Source of the DNA: Escherichia coli
Lineage (GTDB): Bacteria > Pseudomonadota > Gammaproteobacteria > Enterobacterales > Enterobacteriaceae
Direction: 5' to 3' (one strand)
DNA: 64,000 nt
Assembly: GCF_003790525.1 (NCBI RefSeq)
Contig: NZ_CP033636.1
The notes under the pieces are model-generated. The model ran no database searches and was not told where the DNA came from. It saw only the letters and a list, made by a program, of their open reading frames with translations. Of the stretch, positions 6,183-43,930 are shown piece after piece (within the stretch, counting starts at the first letter, position 1; every line of letters begins with the position of its first letter). A program made the position numbers and the translations under genes.

Positions 6183-6761
6183 TCAGGACGCGTTAATGCC
6201 GTACTGAGCACATACAGATGCCAGACCACCAGCATAACCCTGGCCCACTGCGCGGAATTTCCACTCACCATTGTGGCGATACAGCTCGCCGAACAGCATG
6301 GCAGTCTCAGTGGACGCATCTTCGGTCAGATCGTAGCGAGCGACTTCAGTCTGGTTATCGTCATTGACCAGGCGAATAAACGCACCGGATACCTGACCAA
6401 AGCTCTGGCGACGAGCCTGAGCATCATGGATAGTGACAACGAAGATGATCTTGTCAACATCAGACGGGACGGCGTCCAGTTTAATTTTCAGCGATTCATC
6501 ATCACCATCACCTTCACCGGTACGGTTATCACCGGTATGGGTTACGGAACCGTCAGATGACGTCAGGTTGTTATAGAAGATGAAATCTGAATCGCCGCGC
6601 ACTTTGCCGTTTGAGGCCAGCAGGAACGCTGAAGCATCCAGGTCAAAGTCCTGACCGTCTGTTGAACGCGCATCCCAGCCAAGGCCCACCAGGACGTTTT
6701 TCATTGACGGAGCTGCTTTACTCAGGGAGACGTTCCCGCCTTTGGAAAGAGAAACACTCAT
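6183..6761 (-). CDS. terD: TerD tellurite resistance protein
   Basis: 192 aa; [15 protein letters not shown]...[10 protein letters not shown]...[19 protein letters not shown]; AAGAGG SD. Confidence 0.9.
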
Positions 6762-9508: not shown

Positions 9509-10089
9509 TAGCGAATAACCGCTGAAACGATATCGGAGTGCATATCGTCAATTGTGCGGCCGCGACAGGCATGGCCAAGGGCGGTAAAGTCCCAGTTGCC
9601 GTTATTACGGCGCAGCGAAGAAATAACGATCCCGGTATGTGAGCCCTGCTCAGTCAGCTTGTAGCGAGCCAGCTCTTTGCCGGTTTGATCGACAACGCGG
9701 CAGAACGCGTTTTCGACGTCATTGAACGACTGACCACGGAAGCTGTTTACCGTAAACGCCAGGTATTCAACGTTTGCAGGCAGTCGGGAGAGGTTGACCT
9801 TAATCACCTCATCGTCACCGTCACCCTCACCGGTCAGGTTATCGCCACTGTGCACAACAGCGCCGCAGGTGGATTCCAGTTTGCGGAACCAGATGGTGTC
9901 AATTGTTTTACCGGTGCTGTCCATTAATACGCAGCCAGCATCGAGATCGATTGAGTCGTTGCCTCCAAACAATCCTCCAAGAAGACCTTTTTTCTTAACC
10001 GGATCCCAACCGAGACCGAAATGAAGCTGGCTTAATGCAGATGATTCTTTGCTGAGTGATACCGTCTGGTTCTTAACTAATGAAACCAT
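9508..10089 (-). CDS. terZ: TerZ tellurite resistance protein (TerD domain)
   Basis: 193 aa; MVSLVKNQTVSLSKE...[13 protein letters not shown]; AAGGA SD; first gene of the minus-strand ter operon. Confidence 0.85.
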   Translation of the reverse strand: MVSLVKNQTVSLSKESSALSQLHFGLGWDPVKKKGLLGGLFGGNDSIDLDAGCVLMDSTGKTIDTIWFRKLESTCGAVVHSGDNLTGEGDGDDEVIKVNLSRLPANVEYLAFTVNSFRGQSFNDVENAFCRVVDQTGKELARYKLTEQGSHTGIVISSLRRNNGNWDFTALGHACRGRTIDDMHSDIVSAVIR

Positions 10090-37646: not shown

Positions 37647-38879
37647 TTACAGCTGATTAAGACATTCAGGAGCCCAGTGAATCGGGAATCCATCCTGCCC
37701 TGTTAACTGGAGAACATCGTTCCAGTCGATACCCTTTTTCCCATCAGGAATATCTTGTGCTGGTTCGAAGACTTCAATTGTCAGCTTTGATGCGGGATAT
37801 CGTTTAGCCAAAAACTCAACCATGCGGCTTTGAAGTCGCTGAGCAGCTTCAATACCGGCACGAGTGCCTTGTGAGTTAGCAATATCCTTATCCGCCCAGA
37901 TATAAAAGTTTATAGATTTTACATCCGGCGGAGGCAGTAAAAAATCAGGAACAGTAACGTTTTCAAGGCACCATGCGGAGCTGGCTGCCCAGCATGGTGT
38001 TGAAGTCGCTTCTACAACAGAAAGCGCGTTCTCGATCCCTTCAGCCACTCCCAGTGTCCAGGTCGAACTACCTGAATCATAGTGAGGGTCAAACAACTGA
38101 ATTGAGCCACCTGTCATATCGGCAGGAGGCTTCATCATCAGCTTTGGATTTTCTACAGGTGCCTTATCACCATTTTTGTCTACGTATGTTCTATGAATAG
38201 TCAGAGGCCGACCTCGGGTGTCACGATAGATCGCAATCATTCCCGGATAGATAATCGATTTCTGCTTATCTTTATCCCAATAGTAGATCCGGTTATTAAA
38301 GCCTAAATCCTTTGGTAAGTGACTCAGTAAGCGGGAGATCCCACGATTACGGAGGTACAAAGCAACAGGAGTATTAGGCTTGATTTCACCGGTATAGTGA
38401 TACATCACATCAAGTTTTCGCATTCGCTTTGCCACTTCCTCTCGGTCAAGAGTTTCTGTGGCACGAACTGCTGATTTATAGCGTCGTTCATTTTCAATGT
38501 CGGCGTCAGTTAACGGAGCATGCAGATCCATCCCGAAAAAATCTGAGAGAATCTTTTTGCAAGTCTGCGTTTTACTTAATTCATAATATTTCGCCAGAAC
38601 ATCAATTCCGTCGCAAAACTCATTTACCGGAAAGTCATTATGGATCGCACATCCGGTATAAAGGTCTTTTTGTCGGAAACGAAACTTCGATTTCCCTGCG
38701 CCAGTAAACGGGCAAGGAACCTGGCTCGGGGCTTTTGCACAAGCGTCTTTGAAAGCAGGTATTCTTTCGAATATATACTTCCAGCCAGACACTTCAGCAA
38801 TTCGAGCATGAACGAGTTTAATAAAGTGTTCAGATACTTCCTGTGGATTACGACGAAGAGCCGGGGATGCATAAGTCAT
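37647..38879 (-). CDS. DNA primase-like protein (CHC2 zinc finger plus TOPRIM domain)
   Basis: Zinc-binding motif CPFTGAGKSKFRF...C.H; TOPRIM-like GVAEGIENA and WADKDIANSQG; start taken at ATG 38879, track ORF starts at 38951 and overlaps the upstream terminator. Confidence 0.65.
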   Translation of the reverse strand: MTYASPALRRNPQEVSEHFIKLVHARIAEVSGWKYIFERIPAFKDACAKAPSQVPCPFTGAGKSKFRFRQKDLYTGCAIHNDFPVNEFCDGIDVLAKYYELSKTQTCKKILSDFFGMDLHAPLTDADIENERRYKSAVRATETLDREEVAKRMRKLDVMYHYTGEIKPNTPVALYLRNRGISRLLSHLPKDLGFNNRIYYWDKDKQKSIIYPGMIAIYRDTRGRPLTIHRTYVDKNGDKAPVENPKLMMKPPADMTGGSIQLFDPHYDSGSSTWTLGVAEGIENALSVVEATSTPCWAASSAWCLENVTVPDFLLPPPDVKSINFYIWADKDIANSQGTRAGIEAAQRLQSRMVEFLAKRYPASKLTIEVFEPAQDIPDGKKGIDWNDVLQLTGQDGFPIHWAPECLNQL

Positions 38880-38960
38880 GATGATCTCTCTTATCTGGCA
38901 TTGTGAGTTTCTCAATGCCTTCTGCGGTGCAGAAGACAGGGAGAAACCCACAACGCAGAA

Positions 38961-38987
38961 TTTAAGAAAGAGGGCCCGGGGGCCCTC
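38961..38987 (-). terminator. Terminator-like hairpin after the 73-aa gene
   Basis: GAGGGCCC / GGGCCCTC stem followed on the minus strand by a U-rich tract (TTTCTTAAATT). Confidence 0.5.
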
Positions 38988-38992
38988 AACAT

Positions 38993-39214
38993 TTATGCTT
39001 CAGTCGTGAAGCCATTATTCTCAAGACACTGTATGTAGTTATCTACAAGTAACGCAGCCTGCTGGCTATTACCCTCCGCTATAGTGACTTCGCGGAAGAT
39101 TCTTTCCTGAGGGCTATCATTGCTTATAACTTCACCAACACGTCCGAAAATACGGACTTTATGCATCGCACCGACTTTTTCATGTTCTACACGGTAAGTT
39201 TTTATCTGAGTCAT
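38993..39214 (-). CDS. hypothetical small protein (73 aa)
   Basis: AAGGAG SD; no motif recognised. Confidence 0.4.
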   Translation of the reverse strand: MTQIKTYRVEHEKVGAMHKVRIFGRVGEVISNDSPQERIFREVTIAEGNSQQAALLVDNYIQCLENNGFTTEA

Positions 39215-39242
39215 ATTTTGCTCCTTATTCCTTCATGGAGCA
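39215..39242 (-). other. Hairpin that pairs with the SD of the 73-aa gene
   Basis: TTTGCTCC (39215-39222) pairs with GGAGCAAA (39235-39242); on the mRNA the AAGGAG SD lies inside the stem. Confidence 0.45.
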
Positions 39243-39285
39243 AAAAGACCCACCGGGGCCTTTTGCCCCGATTGGGTAGAGTTTA

Positions 39286-41298
39286 TTAAGAAAGTATTTG
39301 ATGAACTAGCTTACTGACTTCAATAGACAATAAAGAAGTATCATCAACTGTTACGAAAGTGTCCGTTTCAAAACCAATTATTTCATCAGTCTTAATACCA
39401 ACACCAACGATTTCTATTCCATTACATTTAGCCTTTTCCATAACTTCGCCGATAGTAAATTCCGATTTATTCGGATAACCATCAGTTATAAGAAAAATTA
39501 TTTTCCTATCGAATTGGCTGTCAAGTAACAGATCAACAGCTGCCATTAAAGCCGATCCCGTAGGGGTATAATAACCCTTACATCCAAGAGTGAATTTCGA
39601 TAGAGATTCCTCAACGCTTTGATCAAACGTTTTGATAATCTCAAATTCACTTTCCTTGAAGGGAAAGACTATATTGGAGACATGCATTTTTGACAAACTT
39701 TCAGCGGCCATCGATAAAGCAAGATCTGACTTAATGGCATGAATATATCTTTCATCATTAGCCATTGACGCTGAAATATCACGAACTAATACGAGGCCAA
39801 CATGCCCTCTATTTTTAGATTCGCTTTGAGCTCTGAAGACATCACGAACTCCCATTGGTGACAGAATTAATCGATTTCCATCGAAGGTAATTCCACGCTC
39901 ATGAGTTTTGTTTCGGCCACGCATTTTAACCTGCTGTAAAACAGACAAGTCGCTACCGATTGAATGACTCAGAGACAAAGCCTCATTGTAAACATTCAAA
40001 TCGATAAGGAGATCAGGGATATCCCATTCAGAAGCACCGAATTCGGCTTTCACGTCATCGGATACTTTTGATGCAATACCTTCAATCTCTTCAGCCAAAG
40101 CATCGTGATAATCTTCGCTATCCTCATCACTGCCAAGAAAGGCATCCAACAAATCTGCCAGTATCTCCCATTGAGCCGATGAAAAGTTACTTTCATCTTC
40201 AACGTTAGTCGAACTGGCTTCATCTGATTCACTCTCGGAAGGGTTAATCGCATCAGTATCGTCTTCAATAATGTTATCACCTGTGGGATTGCCACCGGTG
40301 GGTTCATTATTTCCCTCGTTATCTTCAGCAAGTTCTGAAGGCTCAGAACATCCCTCTTGAGCAAGATCAGAGTTATCGGAAGTATCTGCCTGACCTTCAC
40401 TATCGTCCTCAGAATCATCCTCACGACTATCAGTCGACTCAAGCGATTTATCTTCTGATTCGGTATCGGTATCGGTATCGGTCTCGGATTCATCATATGC
40501 CTCCTGCTCCTCCTGCTCTGTCTGCTGCTGTTGTTCCCTTGCCTCATCCCGCAGTCTCTCTAAAAGAGCCAGGGTCTTACGAGCAAGGGATTCACAGCCC
40601 TGAGTATTTTCACAACCAAGAGCATCATGAAAAATTTCCTCAACATCAGAAATTACTGGAGAAAGTATCTTTTGGGCATAGTCAAAAAACGGATCGAGTG
40701 TTTCTTTGTGACCTGCCTGCTGAAGGACTTTTACTCGCAATGAGTTAAGCAGATACCACTCAATAAATAGGACAGGATTTTCCGGACGAGAAGATATATC
40801 AGGAGTCATCCTTCCGGCTTTAACCATCAGTGCGTAAGTGGCTGCAAGCCGCCGCTTTGCATCCGGATAATCGTTACCAACCTTCTCTTCCATCTGTACA
40901 TCATCGAACAGATTTATAAGCCCGGTAAGACGTTTTGCCCTGCTATAAGCTTTACGTTTCTCAGCGAGGCTCTCAAACTCTGCATTCATTCCGTCATCGA
41001 AGCGTGTAAACCCTTCAGATGACTTGAGAACACTATTAAAGGCGTCACTGTAAACCTCGCTGTCGGTATAGCGACCATGACCAGCTTCATGACAGGTAAA
41101 ACCTTCAATCAGACTGACAAAGTCATCATCGCTATAATCGCCGTTTGGTAAAACACAAACTTTATTTACAGGATCAAAATACGGTCCTTTGGTATTGTCG
41201 TCTATTACAACTCTTACATCGCCTAAGCCGCTAATGACTTTTGCTATATTCTGTAAACGCTTAATATGGCGCGGTGATGATTTAAGATCTAATTTCAT
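39286..41298 (-). CDS. vWA domain protein with acidic low-complexity region (CobT-like)
   Basis: 670 aa; C-terminal vWA (LVLVRDISASM...FLITDGYPN); central acidic, Asp/Glu/Ser-rich region with TDTDTDTE repeat; AAAGAGG SD. Confidence 0.65.
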   Translation of the reverse strand: MKLDLKSSPRHIKRLQNIAKVISGLGDVRVVIDDNTKGPYFDPVNKVCVLPNGDYSDDDFVSLIEGFTCHEAGHGRYTDSEVYSDAFNSVLKSSEGFTRFDDGMNAEFESLAEKRKAYSRAKRLTGLINLFDDVQMEEKVGNDYPDAKRRLAATYALMVKAGRMTPDISSRPENPVLFIEWYLLNSLRVKVLQQAGHKETLDPFFDYAQKILSPVISDVEEIFHDALGCENTQGCESLARKTLALLERLRDEAREQQQQTEQEEQEAYDESETDTDTDTESEDKSLESTDSREDDSEDDSEGQADTSDNSDLAQEGCSEPSELAEDNEGNNEPTGGNPTGDNIIEDDTDAINPSESESDEASSTNVEDESNFSSAQWEILADLLDAFLGSDEDSEDYHDALAEEIEGIASKVSDDVKAEFGASEWDIPDLLIDLNVYNEALSLSHSIGSDLSVLQQVKMRGRNKTHERGITFDGNRLILSPMGVRDVFRAQSESKNRGHVGLVLVRDISASMANDERYIHAIKSDLALSMAAESLSKMHVSNIVFPFKESEFEIIKTFDQSVEESLSKFTLGCKGYYTPTGSALMAAVDLLLDSQFDRKIIFLITDGYPNKSEFTIGEVMEKAKCNGIEIVGVGIKTDEIIGFETDTFVTVDDTSLLSIEVSKLVHQILS
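40183..40193. repeat. AAAGTWACTTT palindrome copy 7 (inside vWA CDS, S-N-F register)
   Basis: Exact match tgAAAAGTTACTTTcat. Confidence 0.9.
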
Positions 41299-41314
41299 AG
41301 AATACCTCTTTATA

Positions 41315-41362
41315 AAAAAGGGGTACTCACCCAGATGGTGAAGTACCCATCTGGGGTTTTTA
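41315..41362. terminator. Bidirectional terminator-like palindrome between the 379-aa gene and the vWA gene
   Basis: AAAAAA-GGGGTACTCACCCAGATGGTGAAGTACCCATCTGGGG-TTTTT; nested stems CCCAGATGG/CCATCTGGG and GGGTACT/AGTACCC flanked by A6 and T5. Confidence 0.6.
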
Positions 41363-41375
41363 ATAAAGCAAACAG

Positions 41376-42503
41376 TTACCAGCCTTTGAGCTCGATATCA
41401 AAACCATTTTCAACATTGTCTTCCTGTTGCGAAACTGATTTCTCAGGTTCAGCTACAGGATCAGTGTTTGAAAACGTGCTGTTATTTATATCGTTCTCTA
41501 CGACAGGTTCAACCTGGAACACATTTGTTGAATCTAAAATAGCTTCAATACCTGTGTTCTGTAGCGCGTTCGGTTCTGTTTGTGAGCTTTGATTAAATGA
41601 TCTGGTAATAGATTCCAACCAGTCAGTAACCTTTTGCTCTCCTGAAATAATACGCTTTAACATTGAAGCATCACTCATGAAATAAAACCACTGCTGTAAC
41701 ACCGCAACGTCGCGAGGTTCAGAAATGGCACCTTTAGGTAAATTATTCATTATGTGTTTTATAGCTTCTGCAAGTACTGCCGCCTCTTTATGTATAAACA
41801 TGAAGCTAATGATCTTATTTTGCATTTGCTTCAGTCGGTCAATAGTACTTGAGCGCAAATTGTTATTTTTGCTAATTTTTTCATAAACCTTCATTGCTTC
41901 TTCTGCCAGATCTGTTATCAATTGTTCCTGATAGTAGTCCTGGGTTTCATCACCTTCAACGCTAATAGGCGTAAAAGGAATAAAGTGAGCAATATTAAAT
42001 CTAAAGGATTTTATGAAATCATCTTTAGTTAATTTCAACTGATCAATCAAAGAAGACATTCTTGGGCTTCTATTTTTTTCAGCCTCAATATGCATCTCAT
42101 AATTGTCTACAACGTTTTGAATACCTGCCTGAAACTCTCGTTCAATCTCTTGGGCCCCTTCCAGAAACTCTTCCATACTGGATACTGGTAAAATCCACAT
42201 ATTGCTATAGCGGATGCACAAGCGTGAGCAAAGAGTTGATATTCTGCTGGTAATCGTACTTTTGAAGCTAAGGGCTTTTATGTCAATCCAGCGTACTTCG
42301 CTTTTAGATACGCTTTTTTGATCCGTAATATCATCTCCATCATAAGACAAATCGATTTTATCGGTTCGACGCGATCCTTGACAGCCACTTATTTCAATTT
42401 TTGTTATAACTGCACCTTCCAGTAAATCTGGATATGATTTTGCAAAATTCTCAGAGATTTGTTTTGCAGATACTTTGTTAAGCATTGAAGTATTTAAAGT
42501 CAT
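41376..42503 (-). CDS. hypothetical protein (about 375 aa)
   Basis: ATG at 42503 preceded by GGAG; the track ORF starts at TTG 42515; sits between the AAA+ and vWA genes. Confidence 0.45.
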   Translation of the reverse strand: MTLNTSMLNKVSAKQISENFAKSYPDLLEGAVITKIEISGCQGSRRTDKIDLSYDGDDITDQKSVSKSEVRWIDIKALSFKSTITSRISTLCSRLCIRYSNMWILPVSSMEEFLEGAQEIEREFQAGIQNVVDNYEMHIEAEKNRSPRMSSLIDQLKLTKDDFIKSFRFNIAHFIPFTPISVEGDETQDYYQEQLITDLAEEAMKVYEKISKNNNLRSSTIDRLKQMQNKIISFMFIHKEAAVLAEAIKHIMNNLPKGAISEPRDVAVLQQWFYFMSDASMLKRIISGEQKVTDWLESITRSFNQSSQTEPNALQNTGIEAILDSTNVFQVEPVVENDINNSTFSNTDPVAEPEKSVSQQEDNVENGFDIELKGW

Positions 42504-42871
42504 GGGTTTCTCCAAAAAAAAGGGGAAACCCTCCCCAACGGGAAAGATTTCCCGATAGGGTTGATATTAAAGCTTCTCTGGTGAAATTAAAAGAATACCG
42601 GGAAACTCAGCAACAACATCATCATTGCCCATTGCTCCCTGATACATATAACCTTTTAATTCCATTTGTTTAATCAGACCTTCCATATTTATTTTACCAT
42701 CATGATAAAACAATAAAGAATAGTCGTTATTCAGTTGCATAAGTCCAGTAAAATTAGTTCCGTTTTTTGCTATAGCAATGGTAGCAGCACCATCCGTACT
42801 TAAAAACGCACTAAATTCAAGATGGGATAACTCTGAGATACAAATATCAGAGGTTTCATAACAAATCCCAT

Positions 42872-43930
42872 CTAACTCGACTTTTTTGCTGTGAAATACT
42901 CCAGCGATTTATCCTTGTCTTCGCCAAGAGAAAGATCTATAGCTTGAAGAACAAGATCGACCACATGTAAAGGTAAAGCAGAAGCAAAAGCTATTTTGAA
43001 AGTGTCAAGAAGACTAAAGGTTTTTAACGTCATCGACGTGCCAACCCAAGCTACTAATTGACGAATATCCATCACACTGTCTTCTGTACCAGAGTCATTT
43101 ACTGCAATCGCTACTCTTACGAACTTCTCAATGACCTGAAAAGGCAAAGAGCTATATCGTTTAGTAAGCACATTGGTTAAAGCAACTTTGTCGGGCTTCT
43201 CCATTTCAACTATCAAGAACCGCTTTATAAAAGCTGCATCTTGACGTTGAGAAGAAACGAACCGGCGAGCGCCTCCACTCATGTTTGTGTTTGCAGTACC
43301 AATAAATCGCGTGTAGCCATTAGCAGTTATAACCTCACCACCATTAGCACTGAGTGACCAGGGCTTACGTTCAATGGGCATGTGAAGTTTTGCTGCCGTA
43401 TCAGGATCGATTTTGTCCACTTCATCCAGAAGAATGAGGTGACCATTACGAAATCCCGTTACCAAATCGCTGTGTACAAAACCTGTATTACCACCATTAA
43501 GACTGCGCTCACCTTCAAGCTCATCAACTCGAATATTGCTGTTGATCTGCTTAATTGTCAGCGGCCAATTCATCATGTGGCTAATGTACATTACCATTTC
43601 AGTCTTGCCAGAACCGGACTCACCTTTAAGACACACACTTAAATCTATATCCGGACTGATAAGCAGTTTAACCACTTGTTCAAGTATTCGGGGATTTGGT
43701 ATGTAGTCTTTGTTCAGCGGAGCTCGATACGAGGTTTTAGTTTTGAAAACAGGCACAGCCATCTTTGGATCCATTTCTGGAATACCAAAAAGGTCCTTTG
43801 CTAGAACTAAAAGATACTCACCTTTATCCACATAATGTTTTAACTTTATAACATCCGGGGAAAGAAGAGCTTCTAATTTTTCATAAGCATCAGAAGATGT
43901 TTCATTTAACTTCATAGCGGCATTAGACAT
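42872..43930 (-). CDS. AAA+ ATPase (MoxR/CbbQ/CobS-like)
   Basis: Walker A GESGSGKT and Walker B LILLDEVD; 352 aa; paired with the downstream vWA gene as in MoxR-vWA and CobS-CobT systems. Confidence 0.7.
   Translation of the reverse strand: MSNAAMKLNETSSDAYEKLEALLSPDVIKLKHYVDKGEYLLVLAKDLFGIPEMDPKMAVPVFKTKTSYRAPLNKDYIPNPRILEQVVKLLISPDIDLSVCLKGESGSGKTEMVMYISHMMNWPLTIKQINSNIRVDELEGERSLNGGNTGFVHSDLVTGFRNGHLILLDEVDKIDPDTAAKLHMPIERKPWSLSANGGEVITANGYTRFIGTANTNMSGGARRFVSSQRQDAAFIKRFLIVEMEKPDKVALTNVLTKRYSSLPFQVIEKFVRVAIAVNDSGTEDSVMDIRQLVAWVGTSMTLKTFSLLDTFKIAFASALPLHVVDLVLQAIDLSLGEDKDKSLEYFTAKKSS

Follow-up and report, generated by a model that had tools for sequence, protein, structure and literature searches.

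A coding hexanucleotide repeat with variable copy number in the vWA-domain gene of IncHI2 plasmids

The window analyzed here is a stretch of 64,000 nucleotides of Escherichia coli contig NZ_CP033636.1 (64 kb), and it was found to possess a gene for a vWA protein of 670 aa in which a short tandem repeat lies within the coding sequence. Matches to the gene at 90–100% identity are found in 1,120 plasmid records, mostly from Escherichia, Salmonella, Enterobacter and Klebsiella. All 14 of the records that were fetched are typed as IncHI2/IncHI2A, and all 13 of those with relaxase typing are MOBH. The features of the region, together with the two distant relatives used for comparison (a Shewanella element, L015, and a Buttiauxella locus, L016), are as follows:

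37647..43930, minus strand: four-gene cluster with conserved synteny (L015 3258-9397; L016 3348-9651)
37647..38951, minus strand: DUF7146/Toprim_3 primase-like gene (phrog_510 DNA primase, E 1.7e-27; annotated start at 38879)
39286..41298, minus strand: vWA protein gene, 670 aa, annotated only as "VWA domain-containing protein"
39286..40194, minus strand: C-terminal helical region and vWA/MIDAS domain (residues 369-670 and stop codon)
40195..40485, minus strand: acidic predicted-disordered linker (residues 272-368, 97 residues) between the protein's two folded parts
40460..40487, minus strand: hexanucleotide array (TRF: period 6, 4.7 copies, 95% matches, score 49)
40486..41298, minus strand: N-terminal folded domain (residues 1-271)
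40500..40518, minus strand: second in-frame tandem repeat, CCTCCTGCT x2.1 (TRF), in a glutamine/glutamate-rich stretch just upstream in the protein
41376..42515, minus strand: DUF3150 protein gene (Pfam PF11348, E 2.3e-23; annotated start at 42503)
42872..43930, minus strand: AAA_5 ATPase gene, dynein-related and CobS/MoxR-like (Pfam AAA_5, E 5.3e-28; phrog_249, E 2.5e-30)

The DUF3150 gene is located immediately upstream of the vWA gene in the same orientation, and the AAA_5 gene is the second gene upstream, likewise on the minus strand, an arrangement that corresponds to a MoxR/AAA_5 gene accompanied by a vWA partner, as in the NorQ/NorD, CbbQ/CbbO and RavA/ViaA types. The fourth conserved member of the cluster, the DUF7146/Toprim_3 gene, is found downstream of the vWA gene, with a 73-aa minus-strand ORF listed between the two and with the conjugal helicase gene trhI (minus strand) a few kb beyond it. 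The order AAA_5, DUF3150, vWA, DUF7146/Toprim is kept in the Shewanella element (27% protein identity) and in Buttiauxella. The AAA_5 ATPase is presumed to be the motor partner of the vWA protein. Identity with cobaltochelatase subunits was considered and rejected, the vWA protein scoring 33.5 bits against the 779-bit cut-off of the putative cobaltochelatase model TIGR02442 and the ATPase scoring 34.4 bits against a cut-off of 558 (TIGR01650, CobS); the likeness of the two proteins to CobT/CobS is at the domain level only. An acidic linker is present in BchD/ChlD and CobT of the AAA+ chelatases. No PADLOC defence-system model matched the vWA protein and only marginal P-loop matches were obtained for the ATPase, while literature searches yielded no publications on the hexamer repeat, the vWA gene or the cluster.

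The N-terminal domain of the vWA protein has an invariant H70-E71-x-x-H74 motif together with E137, and probably adopts a zincin-like (HExxH) metallopeptidase fold, a putative assignment that has so far gone unannotated. The vWA domain of the C-terminal part was identified by Pfam (PF00092; 31.7 bits, gathering threshold 23.8) and its MIDAS motif is intact, with D507-x-S509-x-S511, T580 and D606 being invariant in 17 homologues, so that the protein has both the Pfam score and the motif that are expected of the vWA family. The closest structures found with Foldseek were the vWA domain of NorD (E 1.3e-7) in complex with NorQ, a MoxR-type ATPase, and the MIDAS domain of Rea1/MDN1, with the fold also matching the integrin I domain. 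In the AlphaFold model the N- and C-terminal parts are confident, and residues 272-368 have a pLDDT of 26-38 and are without secondary structure. The hexamer array is placed by this model at the N-terminal edge of the linker, exactly at the end of a long helix (232-272). When 17 homologues, the most divergent at 23% identity, were aligned, conservation stayed below 90% at every column between residues 253 and 370, and both flanking domains were rich in invariant positions.

In the Enterobacter cloacae plasmid pSTN0717-73-1 (L006, AP022520.1, locus 1-900) the vWA gene is broken by an insertion sequence, whose transposase genes abut it ~20 nt from the repeat and leave a remnant ORF of 861 nt. 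This same truncation may be represented by the cluster member P0007 (287 aa). In view of the interruption, plasmids seem able to persist without the vWA gene in some hosts at least.

The sequence-only reading had described a hexanucleotide repeated three times and followed by a variant unit on the plus strand, in frame within the vWA gene and encoding a TDTDTDTE tract in acidic surroundings. Direct reading of the sequence agrees with this description. Positions 40461-40484 of the plus strand are CGGTAT x3 followed by CGGTCT, the frame is that of the 670-aa ORF 39286..41298(-), the tract corresponds to residues 273-280 (the minus-strand translation of 40459-40491 being ESETDTDTDTE), and the surrounding 116 residues (254-369) contain 25 E and 20 D (39% D/E). 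In codon phase (40462-40485) the array reads GAG-ACC (E-T) and then three times GAT-ACC (D-T), giving residues 272-279 (E-T-D-T-D-T-D-T). It can be written on the plus strand as three copies of TCGGTA (hereafter unit A) and one of TCGGTC (unit B), after which a degenerate TCGGAT follows. A plus-strand ORF of 83 aa (40497..40748) which overlaps the region was taken as a mechanical call only.

The self-match run of the array at lag 6 is 22 bases long (with at most one mismatch), the longest in the 64-kb window for periods 2-12. No trial equalled it, as 200 simulations of 64 kb under a first-order Markov model gave runs of at most 15 and 5,000 shufflings of the acidic linker's codons gave runs of at most 19, which indicates that the array is more than chance and is not a by-product of composition. 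It possesses the three or more head-to-tail short units, beyond chance, by which a coding microsatellite or VNTR is recognized.

A tandem repeat of this kind, according to the earlier reading, can vary in copy number by slippage and thereby change the length of the linker, an idea that invariance across related sequences would have contradicted. Among related IncHI2 plasmids it was found to vary, from 2 to 6 units. A 341-nt probe of the locus matched stretches of 341, 347, 335 and 353 nt, and alleles were then read directly in 15 sequences (14 fetched plasmid loci and the 64-kb window) and two database proteins. In all 15 sequences and in the two proteins, when anchored on their flanks, the length differences are confined to the array, consist of whole units and remain in frame. 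The change of linker length was thus also borne out, as whole-unit indels at the edge of the predicted-disordered segment (residues 272-368). Nine alleles were read, each of them a run of A followed by a run of B, comprising 2-6 units:

AB, 2 units: L009; protein P0016
AAB, 3 units: L004, L006, L011, L012; protein P0003
AAAB, 4 units: 64-kb window, L001, L007
AABB, 4 units: L010
ABBB, 4 units: L008, L013
AAABB, 5 units: L002, L014
AABBB, 5 units: L003
ABBBB, 5 units: protein P0005, reading ETETETETDT
AAABBB, 6 units: L005

All nine are connected to one another by single-unit steps, and no interspersed allele such as ABAB was present among them. The ORF is kept in all alleles, which are annotated as an intact CDS of 2001-2025 nt. 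The alleles also match separate long-standing RefSeq proteins, each of which is found on many contigs, and on this account they are not assembly noise.

The distribution of the alleles was estimated with a 97-nt probe, chosen to be free of lineage SNPs, which was run against 1,117 IncHI2 plasmid records. Matches of at least 99% identity were obtained for 480 records, 127 had the same length with one or two mismatches, 509 had a 6-nt indel and one was of another kind. Accordingly, ~43% of about 1,100 plasmids are estimated to carry the window allele, ~11% an allele of the same length with another unit mix and ~46% an allele one unit off. These frequencies are estimates from identity-band counts and from two evenly spaced 60-row samples, and the top identity band is inflated by alleles 12 nt apart, which align as two pieces of 100% identity (e.g., H126). 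An evenly spaced 60-row sample of the 1,117 records contained 25 AAAB, 23 with one unit fewer, four with one unit more, five at 97.9% identity (ABBB class), and one each of AABB, AB and an odd record. In complete E. coli genomes the locus was detected in 273 of 5,426, the 275 records dividing into 188, 47 and 40 for matches of at least 99%, same-length mismatched matches and 6-nt indels, respectively. A scan of JGI metagenome contigs for alleles, using a gapped flank-anchored pattern, gave no matches. Three of 277 E. coli matches are on chromosome records, such as H204 (NZ_CM148383.1, at 4865688-4865784), which suggests either chromosomal integration of IncHI2 segments or an assembly in which a plasmid contig was joined to the chromosome.

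Point substitutions were compared over window positions 39541-41298 excluding the array region, a total of ~1,717 positions. The loci L003, L005, L008, L013 and L014 have no SNPs over these positions, yet they carry four alleles, and L004 and L007, which also have none, differ as AAB vs. AAAB. The array therefore shows the whole-unit copy-number differences among near-identical sequences that are characteristic of a coding microsatellite or VNTR, and, given four alleles among five sequences without SNPs, it changes faster than point substitution in this between-record comparison. Within the second lineage, plasmids that differ in the array still have the SNPs of that lineage on both sides of it (20 nt to the left and 51 nt to the right), and the intactness of these flanking SNPs argues against alleles having been imported by recombination.

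The array is nevertheless only modestly mutable and far from a hypermutable locus, as the alleles are strongly structured by lineage (AAB being dominant in the Enterobacter-type lineage and AAAB in the E. coli/Salmonella lineage) and the window allele is shared by hundreds of plasmids of diverse host and country of origin, the entire gene being 100% identical. As a control, the same assay was applied to an imperfect period-6 repeat in terZ (window 9804-9832), which was without length variation: 40 rows were sampled at even spacing from 1,253 plasmids, and all 38 full-length matches among them were exactly 97 nt. The constant length of this repeat on the same backbone supports the specificity of the variation seen in the array. 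The window has two such imperfect period-6 repeats (TCACCA/TCACCG), at 6496-6518 and 9804-9832, both in minus-strand ORFs of ~192 aa; in matching plasmids the ORF containing the latter bears the annotation TerD family/TerZ.

The CCTCCTGCT repeat is perfect and lies 13 nt from the hexamer array. In plasmid pD36-1 (L011, NZ_MF083142.1) it is down to one copy through a 9-nt deletion, and no other such record among ~1,117 plasmids was found at 80-90% identity. Tandem arrays unrelated to the hexamer were identified at the same position in more distant homologues, namely a 15-nt unit x19.5 encoding QQQDG/QQQDS in Buttiauxella (L016 6770-7071) and a 48-nt unit x6.8 in Shewanella (L015 6724-7047). Near-identical proteins of the Yersinia/Buttiauxella type range from 626 to 722 aa, which suggests that the 15-nt and 48-nt arrays probably mutate much more readily than the hexamer of IncHI2. 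A 43-aa insertion is present in homologue P0045 relative to P0044. The TD array is absent from homologues at 63-68% identity, which places its origin within the IncHI2 branch, from an ESETDTESE-like seed still visible in the 2-unit alleles.

These observations are, in all probability, best explained by slipped-strand copy-number variation of a coding microsatellite which is located in a predicted-disordered linker and is near-neutral. During replication, the nascent and template strands would occasionally slip out of register by one unit in either the TCGGTA or the TCGGTC run, with the gain or loss of a D-T or E-T dipeptide. As the unit is 6 nt and the linker is without sequence constraint, such changes would be tolerated and then fixed in plasmid sub-lineages, resulting in the 2-6-unit polymorphism. 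Independent slippage of each homogeneous run would be expected to give a run of A followed by a run of B and steps of a single unit. The sequence pattern of the alleles points to slippage as the mechanism, and the variants would be near-neutral. The acidic linker would act as a flexible tether in an AAA+/MIDAS remodelling machine, in which 2-8 residues more or fewer at the start of the linker would be tolerated. The same-length alleles (AAAB, AABB and ABBB) could also have arisen by A-to-C substitution at the boundary between the runs.

It could alternatively be proposed that linker length or charge is under selection, setting the reach of the vWA/MIDAS domain or its affinity for a partner with respect to the N-terminal domain and the AAA_5 ATPase, with different hosts favouring different lengths. 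The alleles do split by lineage and host genus (3 units being mostly Enterobacter-type and 4 units E. coli/Salmonella), an acidic linker is kept in every homologue although its sequence is free to change, and flexible D/E-rich tethers are kept in related AAA+/MIDAS machines such as Rea1 (PMC6286127). However, the 16-17 linked backbone SNPs which define the lineages fully explain the host association, the changes involve only 2-8 residues of a 97-residue disordered segment, and the linkers of homologues differ by tens of residues without pattern, so that adaptive tuning is considered unlikely. A wider form of this proposal, likewise improbable, is that the four-gene cluster constitutes a machine of IncHI-type and related conjugative elements in which the linker ties the zincin-like domain to a MIDAS that docks onto the AAA+ ring, and that the recurrent, lineage-specific birth and turnover of repeats (6-, 9-, 15- and 48-nt arrays among different relatives) reflects selection on tether length or charge, for example in host adaptation or an arms race, and not drift.

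There is only a slight chance that the alleles are sequencing or assembly artefacts, or that point substitutions and inter-lineage recombination, and not slippage, gave rise to them. Low-complexity regions are error-prone, and alleles of the same length differ only by A or C at position 6 of the unit. Against this, the indels are exact 6-nt units, unlike homopolymer errors, and each allele is present in tens to hundreds of independent complete plasmids under its own RefSeq protein accession. Moreover, the nine alleles include none of the ABAB type, and the lineage SNPs within 20-51 nt are kept when the array changes.

Even less probable is a plus-strand element acting at the DNA level, for example an RNA structure or protein-binding repeats of the iteron kind, whose overlap with the gene would be incidental. 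Although three to four direct hexamer repeats resemble short arrays of binding sites, the array is deep in a conserved ORF and in codon phase, encodes residues typical of the acidic tract, is free to vary in copy number and is missing from the homologues at 63-68% identity, with the 83-aa mechanical call as the sole overlapping ORF on the plus strand. Phase variation, whereby changes in the repeat would switch the gene on or off or alter its expression, was rejected as having practically no probability, since, although a perfect short tandem repeat inside a mobile-element gene corresponds to the usual setting of contingency loci, no copy-number change of a 6-nt unit shifts the frame (nine of nine alleles have an intact ORF), there are only 2-6 units with the window allele identical across hundreds of plasmids, and the array is situated 813 nt inside the coding sequence and not in a promoter, so that the shift in frame or promoter spacing that defines a contingency locus does not occur.

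The proposed near-neutral slippage in the vWA gene can be compared with known systems. The Salmonella virulence plasmid pSLT has been reported to have a 9-bp VNTR in traD, and MLVA typing makes use of the STTR10pl locus (PMC6459517). As with the pSLT VNTRs, the IncHI2 array has a short unit that is a multiple of 3, is carried on a large conjugative/virulence plasmid and varies by lineage with the frame kept. The pSLT VNTRs, however, are MLVA loci picked for typing, of which STTR10pl is intergenic, whereas the IncHI2 array has only 2-6 units, of two variants, and has stayed stable through large clonal expansions. The array also resembles the contingency loci of bacterial pathogens in being a perfect short intragenic repeat which changes by whole units, presumably through slipped-strand mispairing, but its unit is a multiple of three, which precludes an ON/OFF switch, and it has a low copy number and slow turnover.

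With regard to the protein, Rea1/Midasin has a flexible D/E-rich tether before its MIDAS domain (PMC6286127). The two systems share the succession of a folded part, an acidic flexible region and a MIDAS-type vWA domain, together with a dynein-related/MoxR-type AAA+ ATPase, a partnership that is presumed in the case of IncHI2. They differ in that IncHI2 has its ATPase as a separate polypeptide and a putative HExxH domain as the N-terminal part.

The repeat itself appears to represent ordinary slippage-driven length variation of little mechanistic importance, with no sign of a regulatory role. With at least nine alleles, and separating even plasmids which are identical over the rest of the vWA gene, the array may be useful as a cheap, PCR-sized marker for sub-typing IncHI2, the plasmid family which spreads mcr-1, mcr-9, carbapenemase and tellurite-resistance genes. 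Annotators should expect isoforms of the vWA protein of 666-674 aa. The gene cluster is a more interesting lead than the repeat, extending as it does from Enterobacteriaceae to Shewanella and containing a vWA protein with an apparent HExxH domain.
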